A DNA stretch of 64,000 bases from an uncultured Victivallales bacterium (GCA_934661375.1 CAKUJH010000004.1:45968-109967); one strand, 5' to 3'. Positions 2,024 to 37,567 are shown, numbered from the stretch's first letter. Notes: generated by a model not told the origin, from the sequence alone. Translations and numbers: made by a program.

Positions 2024-3118
2024 ATGATGCAGAAAAATAAACGGACCAATCTGACGGGAAATATCCGTGAGGTTCTGGAACAGCGTATTCTCTGCGGGGA
2101 ATTGCCGCCGGGAAGTTCCATGCCTTCCAATGCCATTTTGGCGGAAGAGTTCGGCGTTTCTCTGCTGACCGCCAACCGCGCGGTGCAGCAGCTGGTGAAA
2201 GCGGGACTGGTCTACCGGCAGCAGGGACGCGGCAGTTTCGTCTGTCCGGATCTGCCGGGTAAAAAGCAATACCGGATCGGGATTGCCGACAAGATCAGTT
2301 ATCCGATCGTTCCGCTGCGGGAAGCCGCGCTGGACATCCGGCCGCGGACCAGTATGCGGTATCTGCGCGAACATGACTGTGAGGTGCGGCTGCTGGACTA
2401 TGAGGAAGTCCGGGACCGGGAAATTCTTTTCCGGGAGGCGGAAAATCTGGACGGCATCATCATGTCGAGCGGTTATCTGGATCCGGTTACTGCGGAAAAC
2501 CTGCAGCAGCTGCGGATTCCGTCTGTGGTGAATCTGCATGAATGGGTCAGCGAATGGTCTTTCAATCAGGTGATTGTGGACAATGCGCCGGGTATGCGCC
2601 AGGCGGCGGAACGGATCGTCCGGGAGGATTGCCCGGAAATCATTGTGGTGTACGAAGACCATCGGAACGGCTGTATCCGCAAGCGGATGTTCTGTGACGC
2701 CATGACGGCGGCGGGTTTTCCGGCGGAAAAGATCCGTGAAATACAAGTGGAGGAATGGGCGATTCAGAGCGGTGTTCCGAGTTTTCAGCTGGGGATGCGT
2801 CTGAGCCGTGAAATCCGCGGGAAATGGCTGTTTTCCACTTCGGACATTGTCAGTTTCGCCATGCTGGCGGCGTTCCGGGAAGCCGGGCTGACGGCAGGAA
2901 AAGATTTTCAGATGGTCAGTTATGACAATCTGGAAGGTTACGGTTATCAGCCGCTGGGTGAGCCGTTTCTGACCTCGATAGACTGTCCGAAGATACGGAT
3001 AGCGGAACGTTCTGCGGAGCTGTTGCTGGATAAGATACAGCATCCTGCGAATGAGACTGTGATTATCCGTATTCCGTCTTCGCTGGTCATCCGCAAGTCG
3101 GCATTTTCCAGAAATTGA
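2024..3118 (+). CDS. AraR-like transcriptional regulator (GntR-type wHTH fused to a LacI/PBP1-type sugar-binding domain)
   Basis: The N-terminus [60 protein letters not shown] is a GntR HTH. The remaining ~280 aa look like a periplasmic-binding-protein type 1 effector domain. Confidence 0.8.
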
Positions 3119-3227
3119 AAATATAAACAGAACAGGAGAAAGGGGAAGTATGAAATCAAAGGAGAGTCAAATCCAAAGTTTCATAATGTTATTACCAGAA
3201 AAAAAGATTGGAAAGGAGAATCATGCC

Positions 3228-3989
3228 ATGAATAACCAGAAGTCATTCCATATTTCATATTTGAAGCGTAAAGTGCTGCGGTTTACACTGATCGAACTCC
3301 TGGTCGTTATTGCGATCATTGCAATCCTGGCGGGAATGCTGCTTCCGGCGCTGAATGCCGCCAGAGAGAAAGCGCGGAGCATTTCCTGTGTTTCAAATCT
3401 GAAACAGATCGGTCTGGCATTGAGTATATATACCGGAGATTACGACGGATGGATTCTGCCGGCTCTGGGAGATGCTTCCAGCAGTCTGACATATTGGTAC
3501 AGAGTTATTGGCGAAAGCAATTCTCAATACGGTGTGAAATGGGTTAATTCCGATTCCGTCAAAGGCTCATCATTTGCGTGTCCTTCTGAACAGAAACAAT
3601 TTACCGATATTTTTGCTGATCCGTCTTATAAAAACCGGAATCATTATTCGTACAACGCATTGCTGGCGGGTTTGCCGGATTCCTATATTACAGGGGGAAA
3701 CGATTATTACGCCCCTGCACGCAGACATAAAGCCGCGTCCGTCAAAGGACCTTCCCGCGCGATGGTTTCCTGGGATCATTTCAATAAAAATCATTATACG
3801 CTTCAACTTTGGCCGGCGAATCTGCCGACCCGGCACGGCAAAGACCGGAAAGTGAATCAGGTCATGCTGGACGGCCATATCGAGACCCGGAACTATCAGC
3901 AGCTGATCAGTGTGCCGCGTGAAAGCGGCAACTGTGCACATTCCTTCCATTATGCTTTGAGTGCCGGATTTTCGGTTCCGGCTCATTGA
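3228..3989 (+). CDS. Prepilin-type N-terminal cleavage/methylation domain protein (pseudopilin-like, DUF1559/H-X9-DG type)
   Basis: [47 protein letters not shown], and C-terminal MLDGHIE. I chose the ATG at 3228 (RBS aaggag 9 nt upstream) rather than the track start at 3150. Confidence 0.85.
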
Positions 3990-4025
3990 TTCTTGAATTT
4001 TAACCTCTATATAGGAGTTTTCAAA

Positions 4026-4682
4026 ATGAAAAAATCACTTGCTGCCTTGTTGTCCAGCTGTGCGTTGACTTCCGTCTTTGCTGCGGAAATCGTCAATTAT
4101 GATTTCACTTGCCGTGAATTGAAATCATCCGGAAAGCTCGATCTGCCGTTTTATTCCGGAGATGTGAAAATCGGCGGAACGGATCAGAAACGATCACTGT
4201 ATTTCAATGGTGAAAAATCCCGTGCCAGTATTCCGGACAGCGGGAGTTTTCATTTGCTGAAAGGCGGAACCGTATTGATAAAACTCAAAGTGGAAACCAA
4301 ACCGAAATCCGAACATCACATGTTCATTCTCAAAAGTGGTGAATGGTGGCTGGCGAAAGATAAAGGCGGAAAACTGTATTTCAATTTCTGCTATGCTGAC
4401 GGAAAAGCTGGTTCCGGAGTGATGATCCCCTGCGATTTTTCCAAAACCCTGTGTATCGGCATCAGTGTGTTCCCGGACGACAAATACATCATTTGTGCCA
4501 ACGGGAAAAAACTGGCGTCCGGTATTCTGACGATTCCATCGGCTCCGCTGTACAATGGAAAAGGCATTATCCTCGGCAGCGGCTGGGGACATCTCTGGAA
4601 TTTCAAAGGCGATATCTTCAAGCTGAAACTGCTGGATGAACCGCTGTCCGAGACTCAGCTGACCGCCGCAACAGGAGAATGA
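4026..4682 (+). CDS. Secreted stand-alone LamG / concanavalin-A-like lectin-fold protein
   Basis: Signal peptide MKKSLAALLSSCALTSVFAAE. RBS aggag upstream of the ATG at 4026. It is paralogous to the N-terminal module of the next gene (shared blocks NYDF, FNG-KSRA-IP, LG-G-GH-LW-KGD, LS). Confidence 0.6.
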   Translation: MKKSLAALLSSCALTSVFAAEIVNYDFTCRELKSSGKLDLPFYSGDVKIGGTDQKRSLYFNGEKSRASIPDSGSFHLLKGGTVLIKLKVETKPKSEHHMFILKSGEWWLAKDKGGKLYFNFCYADGKAGSGVMIPCDFSKTLCIGISVFPDDKYIICANGKKLASGILTIPSAPLYNGKGIILGSGWGHLWNFKGDIFKLKLLDEPLSETQLTAATGE

Positions 4683-4683
4683 C

Positions 4684-7600
4684 ATGAAGCAGTTCATTTG
4701 TCTTGCTCTGGCTTTGTGGGGCTGTCTGGCTTTTGCCGCCAAACAGCCGGTCTATCACTATGATTTTGCCAAAGACACCGACGTGGTTCTGGAAAACGGG
4801 GCGGTGCGCGGAAAGGATTTTATCCGCTTCAACGGCAAAAACAGCCGTGCCGTCATTCCCGGCAGCGAAAAATTCAATCTGACGGAAAAAGGCATCACCT
4901 TCACCTGTGTTGTCCGTTTCGACGACCGGGAAATAATCGGTCAGGACATGATCAGCAAAGGTGAATCCCTGCTGTTTTCGCGCAATGATGCCGGTGCCAT
5001 GTTCTGCGGCTTCCAGAATCTGAAGGGACAATGGCTGCTGAACAGCAGCGGGATGAAAGTGGAACCGTGGACCTGGGTTCATTATGCCATGACGATTTCC
5101 TATTCGAACGAATCGGGACGCGGCGACCGCAATTACACGGTTTCCAGCTTCCTGAACGGCGAGAAAGTTGCGGCCCAGAAATTCAATGACGTCGACCCGG
5201 TTCAGGAACAGAATACGCCGCTGGTTCTGGGGTACGGGAAAGGTCATAAACTGTGGGCAATGAAAGGGGATATGGCGGAAGTTTCGGTTTTTGATCAGGC
5301 ATTGTCCGATGGCGAAATCGAGGATTTGGCATTGAACAATCCGCGTCTGAACCTGAAACGCAAGGATCGTCATCCCATAGCGGAACCGCTTGCCGCCGAA
5401 CTGTCTGCACTTGAAAAGAACGCTGTTTCTCCGGAAGGGAAATGGCTGCTGTCCGCTATGCGGAGAGCCGCCCGCAACGGTGCGGATCAGCAGTCTCTGC
5501 AGTCGCTGCTGCGGCAGAAAAAAGCAGTGTTTCAATTTCGTGATTCGAATGAATTGCAGAATGTCTGGAATAAAGATCAACAGGTCTGCCGGATGATGCT
5601 GACGGATGAAATGGCGGCGCTGGTGATGATTGACGGCAAAGGGACGCTGTTCCCGCTGGCTGGGCTTTATGACCGGCGCGCCGGAAAGGAAATGCTGTCG
5701 TCCTATGGATTGTACTGGGCTGTGGATTACCGTAAAGGAAAGGGGCGTTTGGAAACCGCGCTGAACTATGACGACAATGTAAGCTGGACGGCTGACTGCT
5801 CCGGGAACAGTGCGGCGGTGCATTGGAAACATCCGTTGTTCGAAGCGGAAGCCAAACTGGATTTGAGAGGAAAACGTCTGGAAACATCTCTGGACGTCCG
5901 CAGCACCTCTAAAGATCACCTGGTTTTTCAGGTCAGCTATCCCTGCGTGATTCTGGCGCTGAAAGATACTCCGCAGGATCAGTACATTCACATGACCGGT
6001 GAACTGGTCGGCAATCCGTCGGTCAATGGTTTGCGCAATACTCCGTCGTCTGGATATTACCCGAACGGCCATGTTCCGATGCAGTTCTGCGCCTATTATG
6101 ACAAAGAGAGCGGCACGTATTTTTCCTTTGAAGATCCGAAAGCAATCAACAAACGTTTTACATTCAAAGGGCAGAAACGCGGCATTGAACTGGCATGGAT
6201 GTCATGGGCCCCGTATGAAGTCGGACAGACAGGGTTGAATCGATATGAGTTCAGCGGAAAGGGTGTAATTGAAGCTTTCCGCGGGGACTGGTACGATGCG
6301 GCGCACATTTATCGGAGGTTTCTGAAAAACAAGGCGTTCTGGTGGTGTGAAATTCCGCGCAAGAACATGTCCCCCTGGTTTGCGGAAAACACCTTGTGGA
6401 TTCTAGCCAAGCTGAACTATCGCAATGCTGCAGAAGCGGAAACCCTCAAGGACCATCTGCTTTATCTGCGGAATTATTTTGAACTTCCTTTCGGTTCTCA
6501 TGTATATTTCTGGGAAGATCTTGGCATCGGGGCAAGGTTTACTCACTTCTTCCCCGCATCCTATTCCCTGCCGTTTTTTCAATTCCTGAATGAACACGGG
6601 ATTGGTGTAAAGCCTTACACGAATGTCCAGCTGTGGGCGACACTGGACGGGCCGTATGAAAAAACTGACTGGATGTATTCTTCGCATGGGAAAAAATACG
6701 CCATCAAGAATTTTAACGGCAGTTTGAATTACGAGAGATACAGGACCCTTGACGAAAAATCGACCATGCCGTGGGCTGTCATGTGTCCGGCATGTCCGGA
6801 ATGGCAGAAGAAGCAGATCGCCAATGCAGAACGTTTTGTTTCGTATGGAGCGAAGGCGATTTATTATGATGAAATGCTGGCGGCGGGACCATACTGCTGT
6901 TTCGACGAATCGCACGGACATAAGATGAACGATCCCGCTATGTGGCTTCAGGACGGTTATCTGCCGATGATGCGCTCCATCCTGAAGAAGGTTCCTTCCT
7001 ATGTCGGACATGATACCGAGGGCTTTGAAGAGCCGCTGGTCGGACTTCAGGACGGTTTTCTGTGCTGGGGTCCGCCATCGACAACACCTTTGAGCAAGAC
7101 GGTATTCGGTCCGCGCATGGAATTGATTGGACGTCTGTTCAGCTATGTCTGGCAGTTCAACGAACAGACAGAACAGCGTTTTTACAGCATTATCGGACGT
7201 CAGTTCGCCTGTGCGGAACAGCTTGGCTGGTTCGAAACCCGCGAGATTGTCGACTATCCGGAAATGCTGCTGTATACCAAACAGCTGATGCATTTGAAAA
7301 ACGGTCTGCGTAAATATTTCCGGGAAGGGGAGCTCATGCGTCCTCTGAAATGGGAAAAAGCTCCGGGCAAATATACATATCTGCATGAATCCGGGAAATA
7401 TATCACGGTGGATCGGGTGTTCTCCGGCGCATATATATGCCGCGACGGTCTGGGGATTGTGCTGCTGGTCAATCCGATGCTTCAGACAGAAAAAATCCAG
7501 CCGCTGGTGCAGTATCCGGGAAAAGTGTTCGCTCTCTGTGAAATGAATGCTGAAAAACCGCGCATTCTGCCGAATGACGGAAACTGTTCTCCGGAATTGT

Positions 7601-8151
7601 CATTCCGTCCGCTGGAAGTCAAGTTTCTTCTGACCGGCAGCGAAAATGATGAAAAATTCCAAACGGAAGCCAATCGCGTACAGCAGCTTCTGAATAAAGT
7701 AGCCCGGTTCCGGAAACCGGATCAGACAGTGGAGAATTTCGGCAAACTCGGCAGACTTCCGTCCCGTCAGGTGGCGGACGGACAGCAGATCACCGCCGGA
7801 TTTCTGCGGAATATAACCGGGGCTTTGCCTGCCAAAGACAACAGTTTCATTAGCTGGTTCCGCTGGAATTATGCCTTGCTGGATTACGGAATGCTGGATT
7901 TCGGGGAGAAATCCTATTCCCGCGTGGAAATATCCTATGGCGTCGGCGAAGGTGAAATCGGCGGGACTTTGGAATTGCGTTTCGGCGAAGCCGGTATTCC
8001 GTATGCGGTGGTTCCGTTGAAATATACAGAAGGGCAGAAAGTGACGGTAACGGTTCCGCTGCGTTTTGACGTAACCGGACGCCGCCGTGTTTCGATCCGT
8101 TTTCCGAAGGCGAAAAGCTGCACATTCCACGGCTGGCGGCTTCTGCCGTGA
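4684..8151 (+). CDS. Large secreted multidomain protein: N-terminal LamG module, a central putative glycoside-hydrolase-like region, and a C-terminal CBM-like beta-sandwich
   Basis: 1155 aa. Signal peptide MKQFICLALALWGCLAFAAKQ. It starts 1 nt after the previous stop. The enzymatic family is not identified. Confidence 0.55.
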   Translation: MKQFICLALALWGCLAFAAKQPVYHYDFAKDTDVVLENGAVRGKDFIRFNGKNSRAVIPGSEKFNLTEKGITFTCVVRFDDREIIGQDMISKGESLLFSRNDAGAMFCGFQNLKGQWLLNSSGMKVEPWTWVHYAMTISYSNESGRGDRNYTVSSFLNGEKVAAQKFNDVDPVQEQNTPLVLGYGKGHKLWAMKGDMAEVSVFDQALSDGEIEDLALNNPRLNLKRKDRHPIAEPLAAELSALEKNAVSPEGKWLLSAMRRAARNGADQQSLQSLLRQKKAVFQFRDSNELQNVWNKDQQVCRMMLTDEMAALVMIDGKGTLFPLAGLYDRRAGKEMLSSYGLYWAVDYRKGKGRLETALNYDDNVSWTADCSGNSAAVHWKHPLFEAEAKLDLRGKRLETSLDVRSTSKDHLVFQVSYPCVILALKDTPQDQYIHMTGELVGNPSVNGLRNTPSSGYYPNGHVPMQFCAYYDKESGTYFSFEDPKAINKRFTFKGQKRGIELAWMSWAPYEVGQTGLNRYEFSGKGVIEAFRGDWYDAAHIYRRFLKNKAFWWCEIPRKNMSPWFAENTLWILAKLNYRNAAEAETLKDHLLYLRNYFELPFGSHVYFWEDLGIGARFTHFFPASYSLPFFQFLNEHGIGVKPYTNVQLWATLDGPYEKTDWMYSSHGKKYAIKNFNGSLNYERYRTLDEKSTMPWAVMCPACPEWQKKQIANAERFVSYGAKAIYYDEMLAAGPYCCFDESHGHKMNDPAMWLQDGYLPMMRSILKKVPSYVGHDTEGFEEPLVGLQDGFLCWGPPSTTPLSKTVFGPRMELIGRLFSYVWQFNEQTEQRFYSIIGRQFACAEQLGWFETREIVDYPEMLLYTKQLMHLKNGLRKYFREGELMRPLKWEKAPGKYTYLHESGKYITVDRVFSGAYICRDGLGIVLLVNPMLQTEKIQPLVQYPGKVFALCEMNAEKPRILPNDGNCSPELSFRPLEVKFLLTGSENDEKFQTEANRVQQLLNKVARFRKPDQTVENFGKLGRLPSRQVADGQQITAGFLRNITGALPAKDNSFISWFRWNYALLDYGMLDFGEKSYSRVEISYGVGEGEIGGTLELRFGEAGIPYAVVPLKYTEGQKVTVTVPLRFDVTGRRRVSIRFPKAKSCTFHGWRLLP

Positions 8152-8183
8152 AACCGCCGCAGACAATCCGAAAACAAAAAAAT

Positions 8184-8215
8184 CAGGACCGCAGGAAAAA
8201 AACTTGCGGTCCTGG
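8184..8215. terminator. GC-rich hairpin terminator, copy 1 of a 32-nt sequence repeated at 17865-17896
   Basis: caggaccgcaggaaaaaaacttgcggtcctgg. On the minus strand the stem is followed by AUUUUUUUGUUUU, directly downstream of the minus-strand stop at 8314. It also lies downstream of the plus-strand stop at 8151. Confidence 0.7.
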
Positions 8216-8313: not shown

Positions 8314-10203
8314 TTATTGAATGAACGGTATTTTTGCTGCTGTTCCATCGGCGTTGATCGGATTCAGCCATTGAATCGTGTCTGGACCGCAAAGTTTCAC
8401 AAAATCCGGAATATCTCCGCTTTTCAGAATGTGTGTTGCGCACAAACCCAGGGTGAACATATTGACAGCCGGCACACAGTTTGACCAGTTCAGCGTAACC
8501 GGAGCATGATCCAACACCAGCTGTTCAGCGGCTTGGTACAACGCGCAGGAAATCAGGGAGGCAACCGCAGCATCTTTATACCCGTAGAATGTGAGCGAGT
8601 TGACTTCATAGTGTGTCCGAAGCCAATTTGCCGCGGCAGTGTAATCCCGAACCCATTCGCCTAAAAGTGTCCACCCGAGCCAGAAACACGTCCGGCCTGT
8701 ATTGTGAAAATCCCACTGATTGGGGTTGCCGTATTCAGCCCCCGTTTCACCAGATGCAAACAAATCAAACAGCAGCAGCCCGTCTTCCGATTTCATCGCT
8801 TCGGAAAGGTATTGATTCTGAGCCAACTGCTGTTTTCCGTAAGGCGCCGAAAGCAGACGCCAGCGGCCGTTCGCAGAAGATCGCAAAAGGGCGGGGAGCG
8901 GGAATCCATGACTTTTCATCAAAACGTGTTTATGCCAGCCGTCTTCCTGTCCTCCGCAAGCAACTTCCGTGATGGTGACCGGAGAACAGTTCAAATTTTT
9001 TTCCAGTTCTGCGCGGCGGATATTTTCATTTTTCGACAAGACGGTCTGCTGAATTTGTTTCCCGCGGGCAGCGCAATAAGCCAAAATTCCTTTTACCTTA
9101 TCCGGACGTTTCCCTCTGGGGTAGACCATTGCTTCATCCTGAGACAGGGGCTGATAATCCTGCAGCCGGCAAGGTCCTCCGTTTCCTTCATTCTTCAGAT
9201 GCCGGCGAAAGAATCCGAGCATATGAGAGAGTGCATCCGCGCCATATAGGTGCGGCGTTGGAAAAATCCGGTATTGCAGATCATTTTCCGCATTCATCAT
9301 TCGGTAGACTGGGCGTGCCGCAATATAAGTTTTCAACATTTCTTCCGGAGTGAATGAGGAATACTGATCGTGCAGACCATTGAACATGGCATAGGCACGT
9401 GGTGCTATGGAAGCGATTAATCCTGCTTCTTCCGCAATACCTAACCCGCCGGGAATCGTTTCGCAGATACAGTTCGGTCCCATGATACAGGCTTGCCACG
9501 TGCCTGCGCTGCAAACAGATACAGCTGCTTTTATCCGATCATCAAATGCCGCCAGGTACATTGTCTGATTGCCTCCGCCGGAGCCGCCGGTAACTCCTAA
9601 CTGATCTGCTTTGACATACGGCAGAGAACAAAGCAAATCCAATGCGCGCATATTGTCTGCGATCTGGATTCCGATCAGAGTTTCTCCCAGATTGTTCAGC
9701 AAAGTTCCCAGCGGTCCGCCATGCGGTTCAAATTCTCCGTGAACCGTAGAACGTTCGCCGGAACCGAAAGCGTCCACACTCAAACAGACAAAACCATTCA
9801 ATGCCAGCAGATGCCCGCGGCTTTGGACACGTTCAGCCAAATGCCCATTCTGCCAGTGCCCATGAACGTTAAGCACTGCCGGAAACGGACCGGGTCCGTC
9901 CGGAACATATAAGCAGCCAGTAACATAACGCTGATCTGCCGCTTGAAAACAGAGTTTTTCCACCCGGTATCCATTTTTTTGAATGATTCCTGTTACTTCC
10001 AGATCCAGCGGCAACGCATGGTTGACTTCCAGGCATATGGCTTTACCGAGACGCGACAGCAATTCCCGGCGTTTTTCCTGCCATTCTGCGGGAGTCGCCG
10101 GCAGTACAGTATGCATGGCAAATTTCTGTTTGCCAATCAGTTTCATGGTCGCGGCAATCAAATCGTCCTGTGCCGAATTCCATACATTGGGCAGTGTATT
10201 CAT
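8314..10203 (-). CDS. Alpha/beta hydrolase (acetyl-xylan-esterase / dienelactone-hydrolase-like)
   Basis: VLNVHGHW, nucleophile elbow GVTGGSGGG, and LCLSVDAFGSGER-type blocks. The ATG at 10203 overlaps the upstream stop as ATGA, so I prefer it to the track start at 10251. Confidence 0.7.
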   Translation of the reverse strand: MNTLPNVWNSAQDDLIAATMKLIGKQKFAMHTVLPATPAEWQEKRRELLSRLGKAICLEVNHALPLDLEVTGIIQKNGYRVEKLCFQAADQRYVTGCLYVPDGPGPFPAVLNVHGHWQNGHLAERVQSRGHLLALNGFVCLSVDAFGSGERSTVHGEFEPHGGPLGTLLNNLGETLIGIQIADNMRALDLLCSLPYVKADQLGVTGGSGGGNQTMYLAAFDDRIKAAVSVCSAGTWQACIMGPNCICETIPGGLGIAEEAGLIASIAPRAYAMFNGLHDQYSSFTPEEMLKTYIAARPVYRMMNAENDLQYRIFPTPHLYGADALSHMLGFFRRHLKNEGNGGPCRLQDYQPLSQDEAMVYPRGKRPDKVKGILAYCAARGKQIQQTVLSKNENIRRAELEKNLNCSPVTITEVACGGQEDGWHKHVLMKSHGFPLPALLRSSANGRWRLLSAPYGKQQLAQNQYLSEAMKSEDGLLLFDLFASGETGAEYGNPNQWDFHNTGRTCFWLGWTLLGEWVRDYTAAANWLRTHYEVNSLTFYGYKDAAVASLISCALYQAAEQLVLDHAPVTLNWSNCVPAVNMFTLGLCATHILKSGDIPDFVKLCGPDTIQWLNPINADGTAAKIPFIQ

Positions 10204-24874: not shown

Positions 24875-24893
24875 AGAAGATTCTCCATTCTGG

Positions 24894-25949: not shown

Positions 25950-26045
25950 CAGTCTTTATGACCTTTATCGTTAAAGGTTTTCTGGGCTAACTATACAACA
26001 GCTTTCAGGTTTGTCAAGCGGTATTGTGAAAAAAAATTAAATTTT

Positions 26046-27289: not shown

Positions 27290-28452
27290 TCAAGGAATGC
27301 CGTGAACCGGCAGATCCGGTCCATCGCCTGCTGCAGCAGCGGTACATCCATGGTGAAGGCGATCCGGATGAAATTCCGGTAGGCATTGCCGCCGTATGCC
27401 GAAGCATGAACCGTTGCAACATGTTCCTTTTCCAGCAGAGAGAACACAAATTCCCGGTCGGAAAGCCCCGTTGCCGAAATGTCGACCAGCGCGTAAAATG
27501 TTGCCGGAATCGGACAGCACCGCAGATGCGGATTCCGGTTGAGTCCGGCATACAGGGCGTTGCGCCGTTTTTCAAATTCCTCCAGAATCGTCCGGGAACC
27601 GGACTGTTCACCGGTCAAAGCGGCAATGGCAGCATATTGTGCCGGAAGCGGTGCGCAGGCAACAACGTTTTCCTGCATTTTGGTCATAGCCGCGACAAAG
27701 CCAGCCGGAGCAATTGCCCAGCCGATACGCCAGCCGGTCATGGCGAACCGTTTGGACAGCCCGTTCACCACGATGGTGCGTTCCGACATTCCCGGCAGAT
27801 CCGCAATACTTGAACTTTTTTTCCCGTCATAGACCAGAGAATCGTAGATTTCATCGGAAAGAATATAGAAGCCGTGTTTTTCCGCCAATTCGGCAATTCT
27901 GACCAGCGTTTCCTTCGGAATCACAGCACCGCTGGGGTTGTTCGGCGAATTCAGAACCACCAGCCGCGTTTTCGGAGTAATCAGCCGGGCAAGATCATCC
28001 GCCTGCACTTCAAAATTGTCGTCCGGACGCGTGTAAAGAAAGACGGGTTTGGCTCCGAGCGAGCGGACCACCTGGGAATAATTGATCCAGTACGGACAAT
28101 GAATAATAACTTCATCGCCGGGTTCCAGCAGGGTGTACAGCGCAAGGAACGCCGCTTCCATTGCGCCCACCGTGCAGATGATTTCCTGTTCCGGGTCAAG
28201 ATTTCTGCCGTGCGATTTCAGGTAATCCGCGGCAATGGCGCACCGCAGATCAATCAGCCCGGCATTGGCGGAATAGCGGGTCTTTCCCGCCATGATTGCC
28301 CGGCAGGCGGCTTCCCGCACCGCCAGCGGAGGCGGCAGATCGGGATCCCCCAGAGTCAGGTCAATCACATCGGATAAACGCGAAGCCCGGTCGAAGATTT
28401 CGCGCGGCGGAGAGGGTTCAACACAGCGGACCCGTTCAGCGATTTCAATCAT
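27286..28452 (-). CDS. Class I/II pyridoxal-phosphate aminotransferase (AspC-like)
   Basis: LNSPNNPSG and the PLP-lysine block NGLSKRFAMTGWRIGW. Confidence 0.85.
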   Translation of the reverse strand: MIEIAERVRCVEPSPPREIFDRASRLSDVIDLTLGDPDLPPPLAVREAACRAIMAGKTRYSANAGLIDLRCAIAADYLKSHGRNLDPEQEIICTVGAMEAAFLALYTLLEPGDEVIIHCPYWINYSQVVRSLGAKPVFLYTRPDDNFEVQADDLARLITPKTRLVVLNSPNNPSGAVIPKETLVRIAELAEKHGFYILSDEIYDSLVYDGKKSSSIADLPGMSERTIVVNGLSKRFAMTGWRIGWAIAPAGFVAAMTKMQENVVACAPLPAQYAAIAALTGEQSGSRTILEEFEKRRNALYAGLNRNPHLRCCPIPATFYALVDISATGLSDREFVFSLLEKEHVATVHASAYGGNAYRNFIRIAFTMDVPLLQQAMDRICRFTAFLE

Positions 28453-29824: not shown

Positions 29825-30926
29825 GTTTCAGCTCCACGGTACAATCTTCATAGATGGACTGGTACGCCGCGTTCATGACCCGGACCGCTTCATAGCTTTC
29901 CCGCAGTCCGGTTTCCGCCCGTTCCCGGCGGCCTTCAATGGCGGCGACAAACGAACCGATCAGGCAGTCTTCCGGATTGCCGGGAACGCTGGGCACATGC
30001 TCGACCAGCAGCCGGTTCGGACTGGGCATCCGGTCTCCGAGAACATAGCAGTGCCGGTCAAAGAAATCGGCGGCAATGTAGCCTTTCGTGCCGGTGATCT
30101 TGAGATTGCATTCCAGGGATTTCGGCCAGTAGAGACGGCGTACATCACAGCGTTCTTCCATGTGCGAGTAGCTCGGATTGATGAAATAAGGAATTCCGTT
30201 GTCCAGAGTTCCCGTAATCGCGGCATGATCCTCCACTTCCAGATGCAGCCGCTGATTCCGGGCGGACATCGCTTTGACCGTGCGGAACTCCCGTCCGGTC
30301 AGCCAGCGCACCACGTCATAGGGATGCGGGTGATCCGTGATCGCACCGCCGCGGAAAATATTGGAACCTTTGTGAATCGGAATGCGTTTGCCGTAGGAGA
30401 GCAGGGGATCTCCCCAGTTCGGATAGTAATTGCAGGGACTCTGGGAAATGTTGGTCAGGAAAATGGAGGTGATCTCGCCGATCCGTCCCGATTCCAGAAT
30501 CTGTTTGGCATAAACGAACTGCGGATTGAAGTGCAGTTCCAGTTCGGCGGCAATGACCCGGTCGTAATGTTTTTCGATTTCCAGCATCTGGCGGCATTCG
30601 TCTTCATTCATGGAAATCACTTTCATCATATAAATATGAAGATGACGGCGCACCGCTTCCTGGAACATTTCAAAGTGTTCGATATTGTCGCTGCCGATCA
30701 GCACGATTTCCGCATCGGGATTTTCATCGAACATCTGGATGTAATCGGAGTAGAAATGAACCCGCGGGTTGTCGCCGATCCGTTCCCGCGCCGTCTGCAT
30801 TCTTTTCGGGTCGAATTCCGACACTCCGACAATTTCCAGCGCGGAAATATCGCGTCCCGCACCGGTGATGTAAAGCGAAATATGCGGATTGGCAGTTCCG
30901 GCAATCAAAGTTTTGTAGCGTTTCAT
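29817..30926 (-). CDS. Gfo/Idh/MocA-like oxidoreductase with a degenerate dinucleotide-binding motif
   Basis: I chose the ATG at 30926, which overlaps the upstream stop as ATGA (ggagg ~10 nt upstream). The overall layout is family-like, but the N-terminus reads YKTLIAGTANPHISLYI instead of GxGxxG. Confidence 0.6.
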   Translation of the reverse strand: MKRYKTLIAGTANPHISLYITGAGRDISALEIVGVSEFDPKRMQTARERIGDNPRVHFYSDYIQMFDENPDAEIVLIGSDNIEHFEMFQEAVRRHLHIYMMKVISMNEDECRQMLEIEKHYDRVIAAELELHFNPQFVYAKQILESGRIGEITSIFLTNISQSPCNYYPNWGDPLLSYGKRIPIHKGSNIFRGGAITDHPHPYDVVRWLTGREFRTVKAMSARNQRLHLEVEDHAAITGTLDNGIPYFINPSYSHMEERCDVRRLYWPKSLECNLKITGTKGYIAADFFDRHCYVLGDRMPSPNRLLVEHVPSVPGNPEDCLIGSFVAAIEGRRERAETGLRESYEAVRVMNAAYQSIYEDCTVELKHE

Positions 30927-31573
30927 CTGTTCCATGCCTCCAAAATCATCTGATGAAGAATATTGCAATTGAGTTTTCCTTTCGGCAGTTCTCCTTTTTC
31001 CATGACCAGACGAAAATGCATTTTCATCCATTCGTATGGTCCGGAAGCCATGCCGGATGTGCCGTTTTCCGTTACCAGCATTTCCATTTTTTCCGCATCG
31101 GCGCAGAGAATCCCTTCTTCATTGATGAAACCGATCAGCGGCTGGTTGGTAACACACCCGGTCTGGAAATATCCTTTGATGAAAGCAATGTCCGGCATCG
31201 TGTCCGGCAGACATTCATTCAGTTCTATTTCCGCGACAATGTCATCCGGAAAACGGATCAGGGAGAACAGAGAGTTTTTGTCCGCGTTCCGGTTGATGAA
31301 GATTTCCTCCGGAAGTGTTCCGGTGATGGACGCCGCCGCATCGACCATAGGCAGGAAGCGTTCGCACAGAAATTCTTCTTCGGACGCCGCCGCATTTTTC
31401 GCCGGACGCGATGACGTCATCCGGAATGAACTCAGAAAGCCGGAACGTTCATTTTTGACGGCATTGCGGAGTTTTACCGCGATGGGAAACTGGCGCCAGT
31501 AAAGCGCAGTGTAAAAGTTTTCATCCGTACGGGACAGAGCCTCCCGGACACTCAGAACAGGAATTGCATTCAT
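30923..31573 (-). CDS. Hypothetical protein (216 aa), translationally coupled to the Gfo-like gene
   Basis: The ORF runs from the ATG at 31573 and has coding-like composition. No family is recognised. It sits inside a tightly packed operon. Confidence 0.4.
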   Translation of the reverse strand: MNAIPVLSVREALSRTDENFYTALYWRQFPIAVKLRNAVKNERSGFLSSFRMTSSRPAKNAAASEEEFLCERFLPMVDAAASITGTLPEEIFINRNADKNSLFSLIRFPDDIVAEIELNECLPDTMPDIAFIKGYFQTGCVTNQPLIGFINEEGILCADAEKMEMLVTENGTSGMASGPYEWMKMHFRLVMEKGELPKGKLNCNILHQMILEAWNR

Positions 31574-31583: not shown

Positions 31584-34481
31584 TCATTTTTCGATGCGGA
31601 AAAGCATCGTATCTCCAGTTTTCATGTTTCGTTCAATGCGGCGGACATTCTGCAGAGTTTTTCCACTGAGAAGATCCGTCAGATTCATCGTGCGGGGCAG
31701 TTCAAGGCAATGCTCTCCGTCGGAAGCGGCATGAAGCATGATGAAACCTTCATTGGCTCCGACGATGTCGCCGGTGCGGTTGTAAATATGCACTCCCGCC
31801 TGTTCCGCAGCCCCCCGCAGAAGTCCGGCAGTGGGACGCGTGAGACTGTAAATGCTTCTGCCGCCCCAGGGGGCTTCCGCACTTACAACGGCGGGATTTC
31901 CCTGAAACTCCGCGATGGTCTTGAAACCGTTTCCGACCGGCTTGAATCCGGGGTCAAACGCATAGTATTCCGGATCCTGACGCAGATAACGGGCAAGCGG
32001 ATCGTCCGGAGCGGTGATTTTCAGACGGGAACGCGGGACTTTCCGCACTGTTTCCAGTTTGATTCCCGTCAGCAGCTGACTGATTCCCGTGCTGACTCCG
32101 CCGTAAGTGATGAAGCCGGGCGCGTAAAACCACAATGCCGCCGCTTTATTTTTCGCCAGAATGGAATGGATTTTTTTCACCTGTTCCCGTTCATTGCCGC
32201 CCAGATACCAGAGATTCGGGAAAACATAGAGTTTGTACTCCGGAATTTTTCCTTCCAGAAAATCACTGTACAGATACGTATCGAACGGAACACCCGCCCG
32301 CCAGCATTCGGAAACCGCGTTCCGGACATAATCCCGGTGCTGTTTGACTGAATCATTGACGAACATCATGCTGACTTCATCCATGATCAGAGCCACTTCG
32401 GCAGTCGAACGCCGGGGCTGATTCCGCTGTTCCTTTTCAATCCGGGCAAGCTCGGCAATCTGCCGCATCAGTTCTTCGTTGTGGAAGGTGCGGACGCCTT
32501 CCAGCAGCAGCCACTGAATGGACGTGCCGCGGGTCAGGGCATTCGCAAGAGTGCGCGTGTTGACTTGCAGGGTTTCTTCCAGTGTCGGCGTGCGGTAAAC
32601 CGTATCGAAAGAAGTGAAACAGGTCCGCATATCCGCTTCATCGAAATAGAGTTTGCCATGAAGCGTGAGCGATGCCGTGTAGTCGTTGAGATAATCGCCT
32701 TCCTGTCCGGCGCGCCGTCGGTCATACGCCATGCAGCCCATCATGAAATCGACGTTCGGATCACGCAGGACACGTCCCAGGGAGTGGAATCCCTGGTTTT
32801 CCAGATCCGGATGCCAGAGCGTGTAGCCGAAAAACACTCCGACCGGTTTTTTCACGGACATTGCCTCTTTGGCGCCGCGGGCAAACATGCCGATGCAGTC
32901 TGCAACGGTATCGCTGGCGAACATCCGGTAGTCGATGACCCGTCTGGCTTTGGGATAGTAGCGGAAAAATCCGTATTCCGAGCGGCGGCGTTCTTCCGGC
33001 GGCGGAACTGCGGCTGTCTGAAGCGTTATTTCCGTATTGCCGTAGGCACGCTGAAGCGCGGCGTCGCTCTTGTAGCGTTTGCCCAGCCATTGACGGAACG
33101 CCGCCTGATTGCATTCCGAATAATCCACATACCCGTTGTGGCTGCCCCACCAGTACCATTCGCTGGCACGTCCGCCGGCAATCAGATACCCCGCAACTCT
33201 GCCAGCCCAGGGGCCGCTCTCCACATGCCGGATGAATGTCTGCATTGCCTTCATGGCATCCTTCCGCCAGGACGGACTGTTGAACGAAGGCTGAAAGCGG
33301 TCTGTCTTTCCTTCCGGGGTGCAGCCGGCTTCCTTTTTATGCTGCGCGCACCACCAGCGCGGCATGTCGATTTTGAGACGGATCAGCAGAAAATTTTCCG
33401 GACTGGCTTTCACCGCCGCTTCCAGCTGCTGATCCACAATCGTCCAGTCGTATAGGTCCGGACCTGTGTACCAGTCGCGGATTCCATTTTTCCAGATGGT
33501 GAGATTCTGGACACAGACTCCGGTCAGCCGGATTCCCGCCGCCGCAAAATCCCGTTCCGAAGCCCTGGCATCGGAATCTTTGTCTTTTGCGGAGACACAT
33601 GACATCATGCCGGGCAGAATCTGTCCGTTGCGGCTGAACGCCGGTGCGCCGTTGTGCATGACCACTTTCACTGGAAGATTTTTTACGGATTGCACCGGCG
33701 GAAGATTTTTTTCATATTTCTGTGTCAGCTGCAGTTTGGTTTCAAATCCGGGCGTCTGCGGAGCAAGGGTTTCTTTCCAGCGGTCGGGAACCTGAATGGT
33801 GCCGGATGGATAGTACTTCCGTTCCGCTTCGAAGTGTGCGGAGACTTCTTCCTGGGAAAGAGTGCGGTTGTAGAAAGAAATCCTGCCGATCCATCCGTCG
33901 AAGAATGCGATGGTGCCGCCACCGCCGCCTTCTCCTGCGCCGATCCGGACAGACGCATCGGTCCAGGGAATAAATTTCCCGCGGGCGATGCTCCGGGCAG
34001 CCGGTTTGCCGTTGATATAAGTCCGGAATTCGCCGTTTTCAAAGGTGCCGGCAATATGATTCCATTGTTCCGGAGTAACTTTCGCGCAGTCCTTGAGCGG
34101 AATCAGTTTGGTTCCGTATTTTCCCGTGCGCAGTTTATCTGAATAGCGCAGCACGCCTTCCCAGAAACGGGAAAACGGATTGATGAAGGAAAACAGCGGG
34201 ACATTTTCAAACAGCTGAAGACTGATTTCCGCCGCATCGCGGGAACGGTCGCCCTTGAATACAATGGTGTGATAGCCTTTGGCTCTTGGACCCGGCACAA
34301 TCCAGGCTTCCATGGAAAAATTCTTTTCATTGAAATTTTCCGGTTTCAGCTGCATTTCCAGTTTCTGTTCCGGGATGTTCCCCATCAGAACCGGTTTGCC
34401 GTGTTCCCCGAAGGATGCTGTCGGCGCCTGTGCCAGCAACATTGCGGGAAGGCAGAAAAGCAAGAAGGTATGGAGTTTCAT
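31584..34481 (-). CDS. Large secreted protein: an N-terminal LamG module plus a GH42-like/clan-A-like putative glycoside hydrolase region
   Basis: 965 aa. Signal peptide MKLHTFLLFCLPAMLLAQA. LamG blocks FSMEAWIVPG...IVFKG...FFDGWIGRISFYNRTLSQEEV. Confidence 0.55.
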   Translation of the reverse strand: MKLHTFLLFCLPAMLLAQAPTASFGEHGKPVLMGNIPEQKLEMQLKPENFNEKNFSMEAWIVPGPRAKGYHTIVFKGDRSRDAAEISLQLFENVPLFSFINPFSRFWEGVLRYSDKLRTGKYGTKLIPLKDCAKVTPEQWNHIAGTFENGEFRTYINGKPAARSIARGKFIPWTDASVRIGAGEGGGGGTIAFFDGWIGRISFYNRTLSQEEVSAHFEAERKYYPSGTIQVPDRWKETLAPQTPGFETKLQLTQKYEKNLPPVQSVKNLPVKVVMHNGAPAFSRNGQILPGMMSCVSAKDKDSDARASERDFAAAGIRLTGVCVQNLTIWKNGIRDWYTGPDLYDWTIVDQQLEAAVKASPENFLLIRLKIDMPRWWCAQHKKEAGCTPEGKTDRFQPSFNSPSWRKDAMKAMQTFIRHVESGPWAGRVAGYLIAGGRASEWYWWGSHNGYVDYSECNQAAFRQWLGKRYKSDAALQRAYGNTEITLQTAAVPPPEERRRSEYGFFRYYPKARRVIDYRMFASDTVADCIGMFARGAKEAMSVKKPVGVFFGYTLWHPDLENQGFHSLGRVLRDPNVDFMMGCMAYDRRRAGQEGDYLNDYTASLTLHGKLYFDEADMRTCFTSFDTVYRTPTLEETLQVNTRTLANALTRGTSIQWLLLEGVRTFHNEELMRQIAELARIEKEQRNQPRRSTAEVALIMDEVSMMFVNDSVKQHRDYVRNAVSECWRAGVPFDTYLYSDFLEGKIPEYKLYVFPNLWYLGGNEREQVKKIHSILAKNKAAALWFYAPGFITYGGVSTGISQLLTGIKLETVRKVPRSRLKITAPDDPLARYLRQDPEYYAFDPGFKPVGNGFKTIAEFQGNPAVVSAEAPWGGRSIYSLTRPTAGLLRGAAEQAGVHIYNRTGDIVGANEGFIMLHAASDGEHCLELPRTMNLTDLLSGKTLQNVRRIERNMKTGDTMLFRIEK

Positions 34482-34494: not shown

Positions 34495-35334
34495 TTATCT
34501 TAAGAAAAGACCATATTTATACCAGTCTGTGCTGGCGATCCGGCTGCTGATGCTTGCCTGACTGGCTTGCGTATTATTGCGCGGAAAACCGGAATTTTCC
34601 AGCAGAGTGCGGTCTGCCGAAACGGCATGTCCGTCCACGAATGTGGTGTTGCAGCGGTTGACCTTGTGGGCATCCCAGAAACTGCGTTTGTTCTGCAGAT
34701 CCACCCTGGAATATCCGTAAGGTTTGTCAAAATTGCGGATGTCGGCGAAAACCACTTTGGAGGACGGCTGCGGAATGCGTTTGAACAGGACAAATCCAAA
34801 AGCTGATGTGGATTTATACCCGGATACATAGGGATGAACACCGTCCCGGTCATAATAGAGCGTTTTGTTTACCACGCCCCAGCCGTTGTTGAAACCATAA
34901 CCGAACACCGTAAACCGGTAACGCATTTCTGTTTTCTCCTTTCCGGTCTCGATTTTTCTGCTGGAAAAATCATTCTTCGGGCAGCTGTACGCTTTGTATG
35001 CGCTTTCCGGTTTCGGAACCAGTCCGGCTTCGATCAGCCGGTTGCCCCATTCCGGAAGGGTTGACCAATGCGTTTTGTTGTAGGCGGATATCTGCTGATC
35101 ATAGGCGTCCAGATACGCATACAATGTCAGAAACAGTGATTTCTGATTATTGATGCAGGAAATCATTGTCGCCCGGTTCCTTGCCGAATTCAGCGCAGGC
35201 AGGAGCATACCCGCCAGAATCGCAATGATCGCAATCACAACAAGGAGTTCTATCAGTGTGAACCGCAACAAGTTACGTTTCAAATGCGGAATGCGAGATG
35301 TGAAATGGTTGGCAATGACTGTTGTTTTTTTCAT
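34495..35334 (-). CDS. Prepilin-type N-terminal cleavage/methylation domain protein (pseudopilin-like)
   Basis: [43 protein letters not shown], and C-terminal [11 protein letters not shown] at 35334 with RBS aaggag. Confidence 0.85.
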
Positions 35335-35462
35335 GGCAGGGTTCTCCTTTCTGATCTTTTTTCGCAACTTTGATTTTCCTCTGTTTTCATATTCTGCCCA
35401 TTCTCCGGTTTTAATGTTTCATGTCCGCAATCTCCTGTCTTTTTAATTTCATATCTCATATT

Positions 35463-36497
35463 TCATTTTTTATTCAGCACCCGGTTGTAGTTTTCACCGA
35501 TCCGGTCCCACAGTTTGAGCGGATCCGGCGCAGCGCAGGTCGTGCCGTACCCGCCCCGGAATGTCCATGCCGCCAGACGGTCCACACCGAGATCGCGGTA
35601 CAGGTCAACAACTTCATCAATCTGGTCAAAATTGACGGGCTGACGGAAATATCCCTGAATCCAGCGTTCGCAAGGTTTGTGGTACTTGCGGGCGATGGCG
35701 ACGGTCCGGCGGGTGATTTCCTCGAAGAATTCCCGCGGCAGCTGCCAGTTGATGATCGTGGTGGAAAACACATCAAACCACGGACATTTTGCAACCATGT
35801 CCCAGTCGTCGTATCCGCGGTTTTCGGTCTGGTAATAGTTACCCAAAGTCGCATGAACACAGCAGGTGATTTCCAGTTCCGGTTTGAGTTCCTTGAGCTG
35901 ACGCGAGGTGTCCGCCAGAATGAACAGAGCTTCTCTCCGCCGGAATTTTTTGACGTCTTCATTCATGATGCGCGGCATTTCATAATGATAGTGCATACGG
36001 AATTTTTCCATGCAGACCGGACACCGGCAAGTCCAGTCATCCCCGGCATTTCCCTGCGGGGAAGCATAGGCGCGCGGCAGTGCATAGTGGGGTTCATCCC
36101 AGAAAAAGCCGTCGGCGTTCGTTTCCGCCGCGAGAGTCAGACAGAAATTCTGGAAATATTCAATGAATGCGGGGGTGTTGAAACAGGCGTTCGGCATCCG
36201 TTCGCCGGTTAACGCGGAAACCTGCCGGTTTTCGATATTGTCCTGAAGAAATTTGCTGACCTGTTCTCCGCCGAAATACTTGCCGATTCCCCAGGGATCT
36301 ATCAAAGCCCGGAGTCCGGTTTCGTGCGCTTTGTCCACGATGAGCGGCAGAGTCGGACGCCAGAAATCGAAGTCGAATTCCGTTACAGCAAGAATGACCG
36401 TTGTGCAGCCGTGCTGTTTCATTTCCGCGAAATCCCGTGCCGCCTGCTCGACACTGCCGAGTCCGTAATAACTGATTGCTGTCTGTGTGATTGCCAT
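35463..36497 (-). CDS. Compact GH42-like (clan GH-A) TIM-barrel protein with a Cys cluster
   Basis: 344 aa. NACFNTPAF, FFWDEPHY and WTCRCPVCMEKFRMHY parallel the CPNSP..., W..NE.. and CxCxxC...F..W zinc-site and acid/base region of GH42 beta-galactosidases as I recall them. Confidence 0.5.
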   Translation of the reverse strand: MAITQTAISYYGLGSVEQAARDFAEMKQHGCTTVILAVTEFDFDFWRPTLPLIVDKAHETGLRALIDPWGIGKYFGGEQVSKFLQDNIENRQVSALTGERMPNACFNTPAFIEYFQNFCLTLAAETNADGFFWDEPHYALPRAYASPQGNAGDDWTCRCPVCMEKFRMHYHYEMPRIMNEDVKKFRRREALFILADTSRQLKELKPELEITCCVHATLGNYYQTENRGYDDWDMVAKCPWFDVFSTTIINWQLPREFFEEITRRTVAIARKYHKPCERWIQGYFRQPVNFDQIDEVVDLYRDLGVDRLAAWTFRGGYGTTCAAPDPLKLWDRIGENYNRVLNKK

Positions 36498-36520
36498 TGC
36501 ATCCTCCTGTGGTGGTTATG

Positions 36521-37567
36521 TTATACTGTCCATGAGCTTTCCCGCCGGATCAGAACCGGCTCAAACAGCCGGGGTACTTTTTCCCGTTCCGTATCGTCTT
36601 CCGCAAGCAGCAGCTGCAGCGCGCTGAAGGCGATCTGCTGCACCGGATAGCGGAGAGTGGTCAGTGAAGGGAACACTTCCCGTGCAATCGGCAGATCATC
36701 CACTCCGACAACGGCAATGTCTTCCGGCACCCGGAGTCCGCAGATATGGGCAGCGCGCATGATCCGCAAGGCAATCAGATCATGATAACAGAATATCCCG
36801 ATGCGTTTTTTGCCCCGGCAGCGGTTCTTCAGGAAGCTGCACAGCTGTTCCATATTGCTTTCTGTCCGGCAGAATATCCGGTTGACGGTGTCAAAATCAA
36901 TTCCGTTTTCGCGCAGTCCCTGAAGATAGCCTTCAAAACGGGCGTCTTTGCTTCCGAATTCCGGTCCGGCATACAGATAACTTGCGCATTTCGAATCCGC
37001 CAGATGACGGGCTGCCAGGAATCCGCAGGACAGGTCATTGACGCCGCAGACGTCGGCATTCACGCCGGAAACTTCATGTCCGATCAGTACAAACGGCAGA
37101 TTCAGCGCATTCAGAGCGGTCCGTGAACCGCTGCCGGCGGGACAGATGATGAATGCTTCCACGCCGCATTTCTTCAGCAGTTCAATATTCTTTTTTTCTT
37201 TGGTCAGATTGAAATCACTGCCTGCCGCGATGATGTCGGCATTGCAGCGGCGTCCCGCCGTTTCCAGCGCATTGAGCAGACGGCTGGTGAACGGGTTGTC
37301 CATGTTGTTGACCATGACGCCGATCCGGCGTCCGCGGTCTTTTTTTCCGGTCCGGATGCCTCTGCCGATGACCAGGTTGCGCCCGGACCGGGAGAGCAGA
37401 GAATCTTTCTTGAGCAGGTCAACGATTCTCTGCGCGGTTTGAAGTGAAACGTTGAAATTGTCGCAGATATCCCGTATCGTCATGAACGGCTCCCCCACGC
37501 CGCCATGTTCACCGCGCTGCAATTCCTTTGCCAGCAGTTTTGAGATTTCCGCAACTTTTGATTTCAT
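36521..37567 (-). CDS. AraR-like regulator (wHTH fused to a LacI/PBP1-type sugar-binding domain)
   Basis: N-terminal FMTIRDICDNFNVSLQTAQRIVDLLKKDSLLSRSGRNLVIG. The C-terminal PBP1-like domain ends in a TTLRYP...-type block. Confidence 0.75.
   Translation of the reverse strand: MKSKVAEISKLLAKELQRGEHGGVGEPFMTIRDICDNFNVSLQTAQRIVDLLKKDSLLSRSGRNLVIGRGIRTGKKDRGRRIGVMVNNMDNPFTSRLLNALETAGRRCNADIIAAGSDFNLTKEKKNIELLKKCGVEAFIICPAGSGSRTALNALNLPFVLIGHEVSGVNADVCGVNDLSCGFLAARHLADSKCASYLYAGPEFGSKDARFEGYLQGLRENGIDFDTVNRIFCRTESNMEQLCSFLKNRCRGKKRIGIFCYHDLIALRIMRAAHICGLRVPEDIAVVGVDDLPIAREVFPSLTTLRYPVQQIAFSALQLLLAEDDTEREKVPRLFEPVLIRRESSWTV

Follow-up and report, generated by a model that had tools for sequence, protein, structure and literature searches.

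Why should four genes for type-4-pilin-like proteins stand at the head of four separate glycan-type operons? The question is raised by a 64,000-nucleotide stretch of DNA from an uncultured Victivallales bacterium (GCA_934661375.1, CAKUJH010000004.1:45968-109967), which is called the window here and lies at C4:45968-109967 among the contigs of the genome. The genome comprises 3.26 Mb in 63 contigs and is 96.5% complete, and the nearest named relatives of the window genes are metagenome-assembled genomes of Lentisphaeria or Victivallales. What is new here is a type-4-pilin-like family as a hallmark of glycan operons. It is seen in the gene architecture and its genome-wide statistics, and it is accompanied by filament machinery encoded elsewhere in the genome, a pilin-type helix in the proteins, the fold of a glycoside hydrolase of family 42 (GH42) in one partner, and co-inheritance of the variable part of the pilin-like protein (the head) with the enzymes. 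The explanation that we favour, tentatively and at slightly less than an even chance, is that every operon supplies a subunit of its own, the pilin-like protein, to a common type-4 filament, and that this subunit would link the exported enzymes or their glycan with a secretin.

The original prediction described four prepilin-type genes, each followed by genes for signal-peptide proteins and accompanied by a dedicated regulator, in a stretch without assembly genes, and on all these counts the sequence agrees with it. The genes, encoding PP1 to PP4 of units 1 to 4, start with ATG at 3228 (+), 16437 (-), 24422 (-) and 35334 (-), all behind an AAGGAG-type Shine-Dalgarno sequence. The motif FTLIELL(V/I)(V/I)IAIIAILA(G/S)MLLPALN is present in all four proteins, 18-22 residues in, with its Phe codon at 3282 (+), 16377 (-), 24368 (-) and 35262 (-). 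Pfam assigns the regulators to GntR/Peripla_BP_3 (2024), AraC (16947), LacI (25949) and Peripla_BP_3 (37567). Directly after each pilin-like gene, across gaps of 3-36 nt, come one or two genes for proteins with a Sec signal (LamG, beta-helix or GH42-like), which are then followed by genes for cytoplasmic enzymes and, in unit 4, for transporters as well. Matches to T2SSE ATPases, secretins or prepilin peptidases number zero within the window. Two units deviate from this layout: between the regulator and PP4 lies a cytoplasmic gene of 344 aa (35463-36497), and between the regulator and PP3 a GH1 remnant of 98 aa (24578-24874). Because near-perfect sigma-70-type promoters precede the regulators of units 1 and 3, the transcripts of units 1, 3 and 4 probably include the regulator as their first gene.

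The arrangement is not confined to the window. About 95 expanded pilin-like genes occur in the 3.26-Mb genome, and the neighbourhood table covers all 95 of them against ~2280 other genes; the genes were called genome-wide with a simple hexamer model, which is crude and places some genes on the wrong strand. The downstream gene lies on the same strand for 88/93 (95%) of the pilin-like genes and for 70% of the other genes (P = 8e-9), and the gap to it is below 50 nt in 85% versus 48%, with a genome-wide median of 17 nt. A signal peptide is found on 78% of the genes downstream of a pilin-like gene compared with 20% elsewhere (P = 6e-32), and a length of at least 600 aa on 59% compared with 11%. 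A large exported protein is encoded within the next two genes in 72% versus 7% of cases (P = 2e-50); from the other side, 77/157 large exported proteins of the genome sit at most three genes downstream of a pilin-like gene. The genome has two big regulator families, LacI/GntR-PBP (n = 59) and AraC (n = 52), and a member of either lies at most two genes upstream of 51% of the pilin-like genes as against 10% of the others (P = 3e-22). A count that does not depend on the gene calls agrees: of the genome's 27 Laminin_G_3 matches, 19 are located on the strand of a pilin-like gene and at most 5 kb downstream of it, the expectation being 7%. Adjacency of pilin-like genes to genes for secreted proteins in this genome, which was the test set beforehand, is thus far above chance. 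The window units are typical rather than exceptional among the ~95 sugar-regulated operons of this gut Lentisphaeria genome, and four copies in 33.5 kb are mildly above the genome density (Poisson P = 0.018). Because of the short gaps in the window and across the genome and the 95% same-strand arrangement, the pilin-like genes are almost certainly co-transcribed with the exported-protein genes downstream of them, as far as the gene layout can indicate.

The features of the four units are as follows.

1956-1984, plus strand: sigma-70-like promoter before the unit 1 regulator, TTGACA-17-TATAAT, 12/12 (motif match).
2024-3118, plus strand: unit 1 regulator with a GntR helix-turn-helix (HTH) and a LacI-type sugar-binding domain, an AraR-like layout (Pfam GntR 5.8e-15, Peripla_BP_3 1.5e-12).
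3228-3989, plus strand: PP1, DUF1559-type pilin-like protein of 253 aa with an 18-aa leader and then FTLIELL (profiles; AlphaFold2 (AF2) model with pLDDT 84 and pTM 0.80).
4026-4682, plus strand: unit 1 small exported LamG-like protein with signal peptide MKKSLAALLSSCALTSVFA (weak Laminin_G_3, E = 0.008).
4684-8151, plus strand: unit 1 exported protein of 1155 aa with LamG_3, DUF6259 and a signal peptide (Pfam 1.4e-12 and 5.8e-40).
8183-8215, no strand: first copy of a 33-nt GC-rich hairpin, a two-way terminator between the convergent units 1 and 2 (sequence).
8314-10251, minus strand: last gene of unit 2, esterase-like (AXE1 / alpha-beta hydrolase; Pfam).
10200-11591, minus strand: unit 2 gene of 463 aa with no family match (Pfam, NCBIfam).
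11588-12730, minus strand: unit 2 WbsX-family (PF14307) protein (6.3e-57).
12727-14481, minus strand: unit 2 exported 584-aa protein, beta-helix-like, a paralogue of the gene upstream (family clustering, signal peptide).
14481-15620, minus strand: unit 2 exported beta-helix-like protein, with its start at the internal MKKAMCLL (Beta_helix 1.2e-3; signal peptide).
15655-16437, minus strand: PP2, pilin-like protein of 260 aa, residue -1 being His (profiles).
16947-17759, plus strand: AraC-family regulator, divergent from PP2 (HTH_AraC 4.3e-21, AraC_binding 1.3e-9).
17864-17896, no strand: second copy of the 33-nt hairpin, at the end of unit 3 (sequence).
17915-19240, minus strand: unit 3 GFO/IDH/MocA oxidoreductase (Pfam).
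19134-20843, minus strand: unit 3 protein with a GLAA-B beta-barrel and a beta-helix (Pfam).
20795-23632, minus strand: unit 3 exported GH42-like protein of 945 aa, in paralogue family f8 shared with the unit 4 enzyme (Glyco_hydro_42 6e-6; signal peptide).
23646-24422, minus strand: PP3, pilin-like protein of 258 aa with an 18-aa leader (profiles).
24578-24874, minus strand: N-terminal remnant of GH1, 98 aa (comparison with L008, a close relative).
24894-25949, minus strand: unit 3 LacI-family regulator, with an 11/12 promoter match at 26017-25990 (Pfam, motif).
26423-31573, minus strand: unit 4 distal genes, encoding a 216-aa protein that matches no known type, a GFO/IDH/MocA oxidoreductase, a sugar transporter of the major facilitator superfamily (MFS), an aminotransferase and an EamA transporter (Pfam).
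31584-34481, minus strand: unit 4 exported enzyme of 965 aa with an N-terminal LamG domain and a GH42-type three-domain fold (Pfam, AF2, Foldseek).
34495-35334, minus strand: PP4, pilin-like protein of 279 aa (profiles).
35463-36497, minus strand: cytoplasmic protein of 344 aa with no family match, its position kept in the relative L013 (Pfam, NCBIfam).
36521-37567, minus strand: unit 4 regulator with Peripla_BP_3 and a weak winged HTH, AraR-like (Pfam).

Two of these features suggest rearrangement. Just two identical copies of the 33-nt hairpin CCAGGACCGCAGGAAAAAAACTTGCGGTCCTGG exist in the genome, in direct orientation, and their similarity continues, more weakly, over ~40 adjacent nt. The pair brackets unit 2 and the AraC regulator, a segment of 9.65 kb with a G+C content of 0.45-0.47 against 0.50-0.57 around it, and this segment looks like an inserted block. 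In unit 3, the GH1 beta-glucosidase is intact (442 aa) at the same place in the close, 97%-identical relative L008, which implies that ~1.1 kb has been deleted in the window.

The pilin-like proteins consist of a positively charged leader, a type-4-pilin helix and a Cys-bridged variable head of ~180 residues. The leaders of 18-22 aa have KRK/R-rich ends and are followed by ~20 hydrophobic residues, which is the pattern of a class III signal, and the four window proteins score 16.6-21.6 bits with the N_methyl profile (PF07963; cut-off 21.2 bits). The AF2 model of PP1 contains an N-terminal helix of ~50 residues (21-71) and a confidently predicted compact head. At least 8000 scored relatives of the family were found by search, and an alignment of 119 homologues (A1) shows that F1, E5 and P22 of the pilin motif (F19, E23 and P40 in the alignment) are invariant. 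Little or no variation is seen in L3, I4, two Cys, a CPS motif and an RH...N...DGH loop, with H203, N210 and D215 near-invariant, and the rest of the head is highly variable. The His...DGH loop occurs in all four window proteins, in which His and Asp are spaced by 10, 11 or more residues. When sequence profiles were compared with the Protein Data Bank (PDB), the match was confined to the alpha-1 helix of solved pilins (PilA, geopilin and GspG).

Family profiles place these proteins near DUF1559/SBP_bac_10 (PF07596), which PP1 matches with 37 bits and PP2 with 26 bits at a cut-off of 23.3, covering positions 2-32 and 2-71 of the 268-position profile. PP3 and PP4 have no PF07596 match, most homologues carry a precomputed one, and TIGR04294 was not reported for any of the four at E <= 0.01. 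The NCBIfam matches (GspG, ComGC, PilA and families like them) are all N-terminal and stay below threshold. The proteins fall outside GspG: TIGR01710 scores 26.7-33.5 bits against a threshold of 88.85 and covers the N-terminal 55 residues only, and neither PF08334 nor a GspG fold was matched. Few families that lack an assigned function are as large in Planctomycetota, Verrucomicrobiota and Lentisphaerota as the DUF1559-type proteins. The earlier statement that their function is uncharacterised stands, as no functional study of DUF1559/H-X9-DG was found in the literature searched, which also yielded no link to enzyme operons.

Are the partners glycan-active? Genome-wide, the commonest partner families contain LamG together with GH123_N, GH123 or CBM9-like domains, or have no Pfam match. 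PDB sequence searches with four window partners returned nothing or a marginal GH42 match. The AF2 model of the unit 4 enzyme (pLDDT 88, pTM 0.88), which includes the N-terminal LamG domain, has the complete fold of a GH42 beta-galactosidase: Foldseek aligns it with 3tts (E = 3e-29, TM 0.73) and with many other GH42 entries. Two conserved Glu residues, as expected for GH42, are found in its alignment, where E421 is invariant and E615 is conserved in at least 90% of sequences. Judged by this model, the glycan-active label appears solid for units 3 and 4, whose enzymes belong to one family, and it is plausible for the partners of units 1 and 2.

The layout in relatives was sampled on eight external contigs. 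Independent gene calls give a regulator, a pilin-like gene and a 1171-aa GH42-like protein in L009, and a regulator, two pilin-like genes and a 983-aa LamG protein in L010. The pilin-like gene precedes a DUF4838 gene in L011, a PL8 lyase gene in L012 and a GH123_N gene in L006, where another copy heads an operon of cytoplasmic catabolic and transporter genes. The sampled copy of Oligosphaera stands alone, and that of a groundwater Lentisphaerae genome lies between an oxidoreductase and a LacI gene. With these two copies arranged differently, the extension of the layout to the whole Planctomycetes-Verrucomicrobia-Chlamydiae (PVC) group in the original prediction proves too broad. The whole gene order of unit 4 is kept in its L013 orthologue, in which the enzyme is 50% and the pilin-like protein 40% identical. 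In L015 (4534-7997), a 998-aa enzyme that is a 29% homologue of the unit 4 enzyme, and hence of the GH42-like family of units 3 and 4, is preceded by a 156-aa pseudopilin with a T2SSG domain (87 bits) and a degenerate N terminus (MTPGELLLAF...), whose gene overlaps the start of the enzyme gene by 4 nt. This case ties the enzyme family of units 3 and 4 to pseudopilins of a second kind.

Comparison at the nucleotide level shows what is inherited together. Window positions 3282-8141 align with L001 8001-12861, where identity is 94-96.5% for the PP1 head, the LamG gene and the gene for the 1155-aa protein. It falls to 76% over the 35 codons that follow the Phe and to 69% in the regulator gene, the leader is unrelated, and the rest of the genomes is 65-70% identical; the homology stops a few codons before the stop codon of the third gene. 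The converse is seen between window positions 24295-26058 and the close strain L008, in which the LacI gene, the GH1 start, the leader and the helix-coding segment are 94-97% identical, the homology ends ~24 codons after the Phe, and the head is unrelated. The two contrasts indicate that the mobile unit is the head plus the enzymes, with crossover in the conserved helix-coding DNA, and on these alignments cassettes of head and enzymes appear to be exchanged between strains and between distant species. In the L001 comparison the head is under purifying selection, with 10 non-synonymous and 18 synonymous codon changes, similar to the enzymes. The exchange pattern fits a functional unit of head and enzyme.

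The 5' part of the pilin-like genes has features of its own at the DNA level. Twenty-three of the genes share a DNA-conserved leader, ...TCCATTTCATATTTGAAGCGTAAACCGTTGCGGTTTAC..., three of them in the window (3240-3290, 24360-24410 and 35255-35310) and 20 at loci elsewhere. The shared leader includes the palindrome GTAAACCG-N3-CGGTTTAC across the -1/+1 junction, with covarying variants (GTAAATCG...CGATTTAC). At least 7 of its 8 pairs are present in 16/95 genes, compared with 0.15% at control offsets; in the window, all three copies are degenerate (4-6/8). The palindrome might bind a protein, fold into a hairpin in the RNA or serve in recombination. At six pilin-like genes outside the window (C5:39804, C37:17896, C6:104897, C12:47086, C15:29513 and C38:5318), the ribosome-binding site and the start codon are enclosed by a pair of inverted repeats: two of the pairs have dif-like arms ~88 nt apart, and four consist of the leader-coding TATTTCATATTTCATATTTGA and an inverted copy ~160 nt upstream. 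Before the four window genes no convincing pair of such repeats, or switches, was found. L001 also carries, at 5125 (-), a spare copy of the FTLIELL-coding motif, which is decayed and precedes a working pilin-like gene by 220 nt.

These features invite an explanation by genomic bookkeeping, in which the conserved 5' part would be a portable adaptor for expression, recombination or phase variation of enzyme cassettes and the protein would have a generic envelope role with no tie to the individual enzymes. The crossovers at the helix-coding segment in two comparisons fall where such an adaptor would place them, and the DNA-conserved leader, the palindrome, the inverted repeats around start codons and the location of unit 2 in a low-G+C segment flanked by a duplicated hairpin point the same way. 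We nevertheless consider this explanation very improbable, because the heads are under purifying selection and are conserved with their enzymes at 40-50% identity, and because an adaptor has no need of a folded, Cys-bridged head of 180 residues with conserved motifs.

If the pilin-like proteins enter a filament, what would assemble it? A complete gspD-E-F-G-H-I-J-K operon is located on C51, two PilB-type ATPases with a PilC-like gene on C3, and a PilT-family fragment (296 bits) at a contig end. One Tad-type ATPase is present, the T2SSE-family ATPase matches number seven in all, and ten reading frames contain a secretin domain. There is a single prepilin peptidase (Peptidase_A24, PilD-type) at C18:67362-68231. 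In the whole genome, although it is given over to the breakdown of glycans, there are zero matches to SusD (PF07980) and to TonB-dependent receptors (PF00593), with Bacteroides controls positive. The analogy to SusC/D that had been drawn therefore survives as an operon logic and fails as homology, SusD and the TonB-dependent receptor being missing from the genome.

The explanation that we favour connects these elements as follows. A local repressor or activator would turn the operon on in the presence of its sugar. The hydrophobic helix would insert the pilin-like protein into the inner membrane, where the single PilD-type peptidase would process it, and the shared type-4-filament machine (the gspD-K operon, PilB/PilC/PilT and several secretins) would take it up. 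The operon-specific head would then couple the co-translated, Sec-exported LamG/GH proteins to the filament, and the coupled proteins would be pushed through the secretin, held at the cell surface, or both. The cleavage, the incorporation into a filament and the contact with enzyme or glycan are steps that we infer. Precedents are minor pilins that present PilY1, a large protein that is not a pilin, and the Streptococcus sanguinis pilin PilC with its ConA-like lectin module (PMC9934059). Also in favour of this explanation, the supplement to PMC11361711 records an induction of type II secretion system (T2SS) genes by laminarin in cultured Lentisphaerae.

How specific would such a subunit be? 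The original prediction of substrate-specific partners gains from the operon association, the co-inheritance of head and enzyme and the one partner with a GH42 fold; it loses in that the heads co-vary just weakly with partner family. Nearest-neighbour heads agree in partner family in 14/71 cases where 6 are expected (P = 0.002). A strict protein-protein cognate pairing by fold was considered as well and is unsupported by this co-diversification test.

Several findings weigh against the coupling of enzymes or glycan to a shared filament. The mean similarity of heads does not differ with partner family, the observed value being reached in 235/2000 permutations. A large exported neighbour is missing from about one copy in four, and some pilin-like genes are the first in operons that encode transporters and cytoplasmic enzymes of catabolism. 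Among the homologues of the unit 4 enzyme, one with 35% identity lacks an adjoining pilin-like gene. The linkage of head and enzyme may reflect the helix-coding DNA being the only available crossover site. When the PP1 model was compared with the PDB by Foldseek, nothing significant was found; the best match (E = 0.77) is to the pilin helix alone, and as the head is without a structural relative there, no binding site is suggested. Finally, a Gly at position -1 is a classical requirement of prepilin peptidases, and it is absent from 93/95 copies in the genome (R 33, N 16, Q 8, others) and from 114/119 homologues, being present in five. In the window proteins the residues at -1 are R, H, P and R (sites 3279-3284, 16375-16380, 24366-24371 and 35260-35265).

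With Gly -1 missing from nearly all copies, the pilin-like proteins might instead be uncleaved, membrane-anchored periplasmic proteins that form no filament, the head acting as a binding protein, an enzyme chaperone, or a sensor for a transporter or regulator. The Pfam identifier SBP_bac_10, the name 'PulG-like putative transporter' that NCBI gives to a relative, and the adjacency of the genes to those for regulators and transporters agree with such an anchor. However, the canonical gspG-K genes on C51 and other pilins of the same genome also encode no Gly -1, so that the specificity of the peptidase has probably changed; the groundwater Lentisphaerae homologue retains RRRG|F. The invariant F1, E5 and P22 occupy positions that are important when a pilin is processed and packed into a filament, and a simple anchor would not depend on them; in L015 a true T2SSG pseudopilin holds the same position before a homologous enzyme. 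On balance we regard an uncleaved anchor as improbable. Taken together, the residues at -1 suggest either a lineage-wide change in the specificity of the prepilin peptidase, of which there is a single PilD homologue, or no cleavage at all.

The copies whose operons encode transporters and catabolic enzymes but no exported enzymes bear on the main rival of the favoured explanation, namely that the filament captures glycan. Lectin heads on a retractile type-4 filament would bind polysaccharide and pull it through the secretin into the periplasm, replacing import of the SusC/D type, and the enzymes would act in the periplasm or at the surface. Competence pili pull DNA in and provide the model. 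The genome would be equipped for it: no SusD or TonB-dependent receptor is present, yet there are 10 secretin-domain genes, and a fragment of a PilT-family retraction ATPase accompanies two PilB-type ATPases. Heads that are highly variable and weakly tied to enzyme fold would also suit lectins. Kiritimatiella is likewise noted to be without TonB receptors (PMC5148204). Against glycan capture, PDB profile and fold searches gave the head neither a lectin-like fold nor a known carbohydrate-binding motif, and in statistical terms the pilin-like genes are linked most strongly with exported proteins that bear LamG, which would be more likely to bind glycan than the heads are. We know of no demonstration of polysaccharide uptake by pili in any organism. 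This rival is in our view rather unlikely, and coupling of the exported proteins to the filament is the explanation that we prefer.

What might the arrangement mean beyond this genome? It is conceivable, if doubtful, that gut Lentisphaeria run a pilin-based counterpart of the polysaccharide utilization loci (PULs) of Bacteroidota, with ~100 interchangeable, substrate-induced heads on a few shared filament and secretin machines. The class III signal without Gly -1 would then be served by a new peptidase specificity, and the system would be the only route for glycan enzymes or glycans across the outer membrane without TonB-dependent transporters. The helix-coding DNA would be the site of cassette crossover between loci, strains and distant species and, at some loci, the site of an invertible on/off switch. 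The presence of one pilin-like gene per sugar-regulated operon, right before the exported enzymes, is a testable clue to the function of DUF1559. It bears on how glycan specialists without TonB-dependent transporters handle polymers at the outer membrane, and it suggests that one lineage has departed from the textbook Gly-Phe cleavage site of prepilins. For annotation, the pilin-like gene could mark glycan operons and many unclassified families of secreted enzymes.

Four known systems resemble the one described here. With the DUF1559 (PF07596) proteins of Planctomycetota, Verrucomicrobiota and Lentisphaerota the window proteins share the N-terminal helix ending in ...LLPAL, a length of 230-300 aa, massive paralogy and a C-terminal His...Asp-Gly-His loop. 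In contrast to that family, only the first 30-70 profile positions match, the spacing is H-X10/11-DG rather than X9, and Gly -1 has been lost. With GspG/PulG (TIGR01710, PF08334) the first 55 residues align, including Glu5 and Pro22, and the complete gspD-K operon of the genome could assemble such subunits. The globular part, however, is about twice as large and is unrelated in sequence and in fold search, and the genes are scattered, one per catabolic operon, outside the secretion operon. In the minor pilins that present PilY1 and in S. sanguinis PilC, a pilin-type protein is likewise joined, in genes and function, to a large Sec-exported rider on the filament or to a module of the ConA/LamG superfamily. 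Here the LamG domains are on separate signal-peptide proteins that are mostly enzymes, and ~95 alternative pairs are placed under separate sugar regulators. Compared with the SusC/SusD PULs of Bacteroidota there is no homology, and the hallmark is a pilin-like inner-membrane or filament protein rather than an outer-membrane transporter pair; what the two have in common is a hallmark envelope gene that occurs once in each locally regulated, substrate-specific glycan operon.

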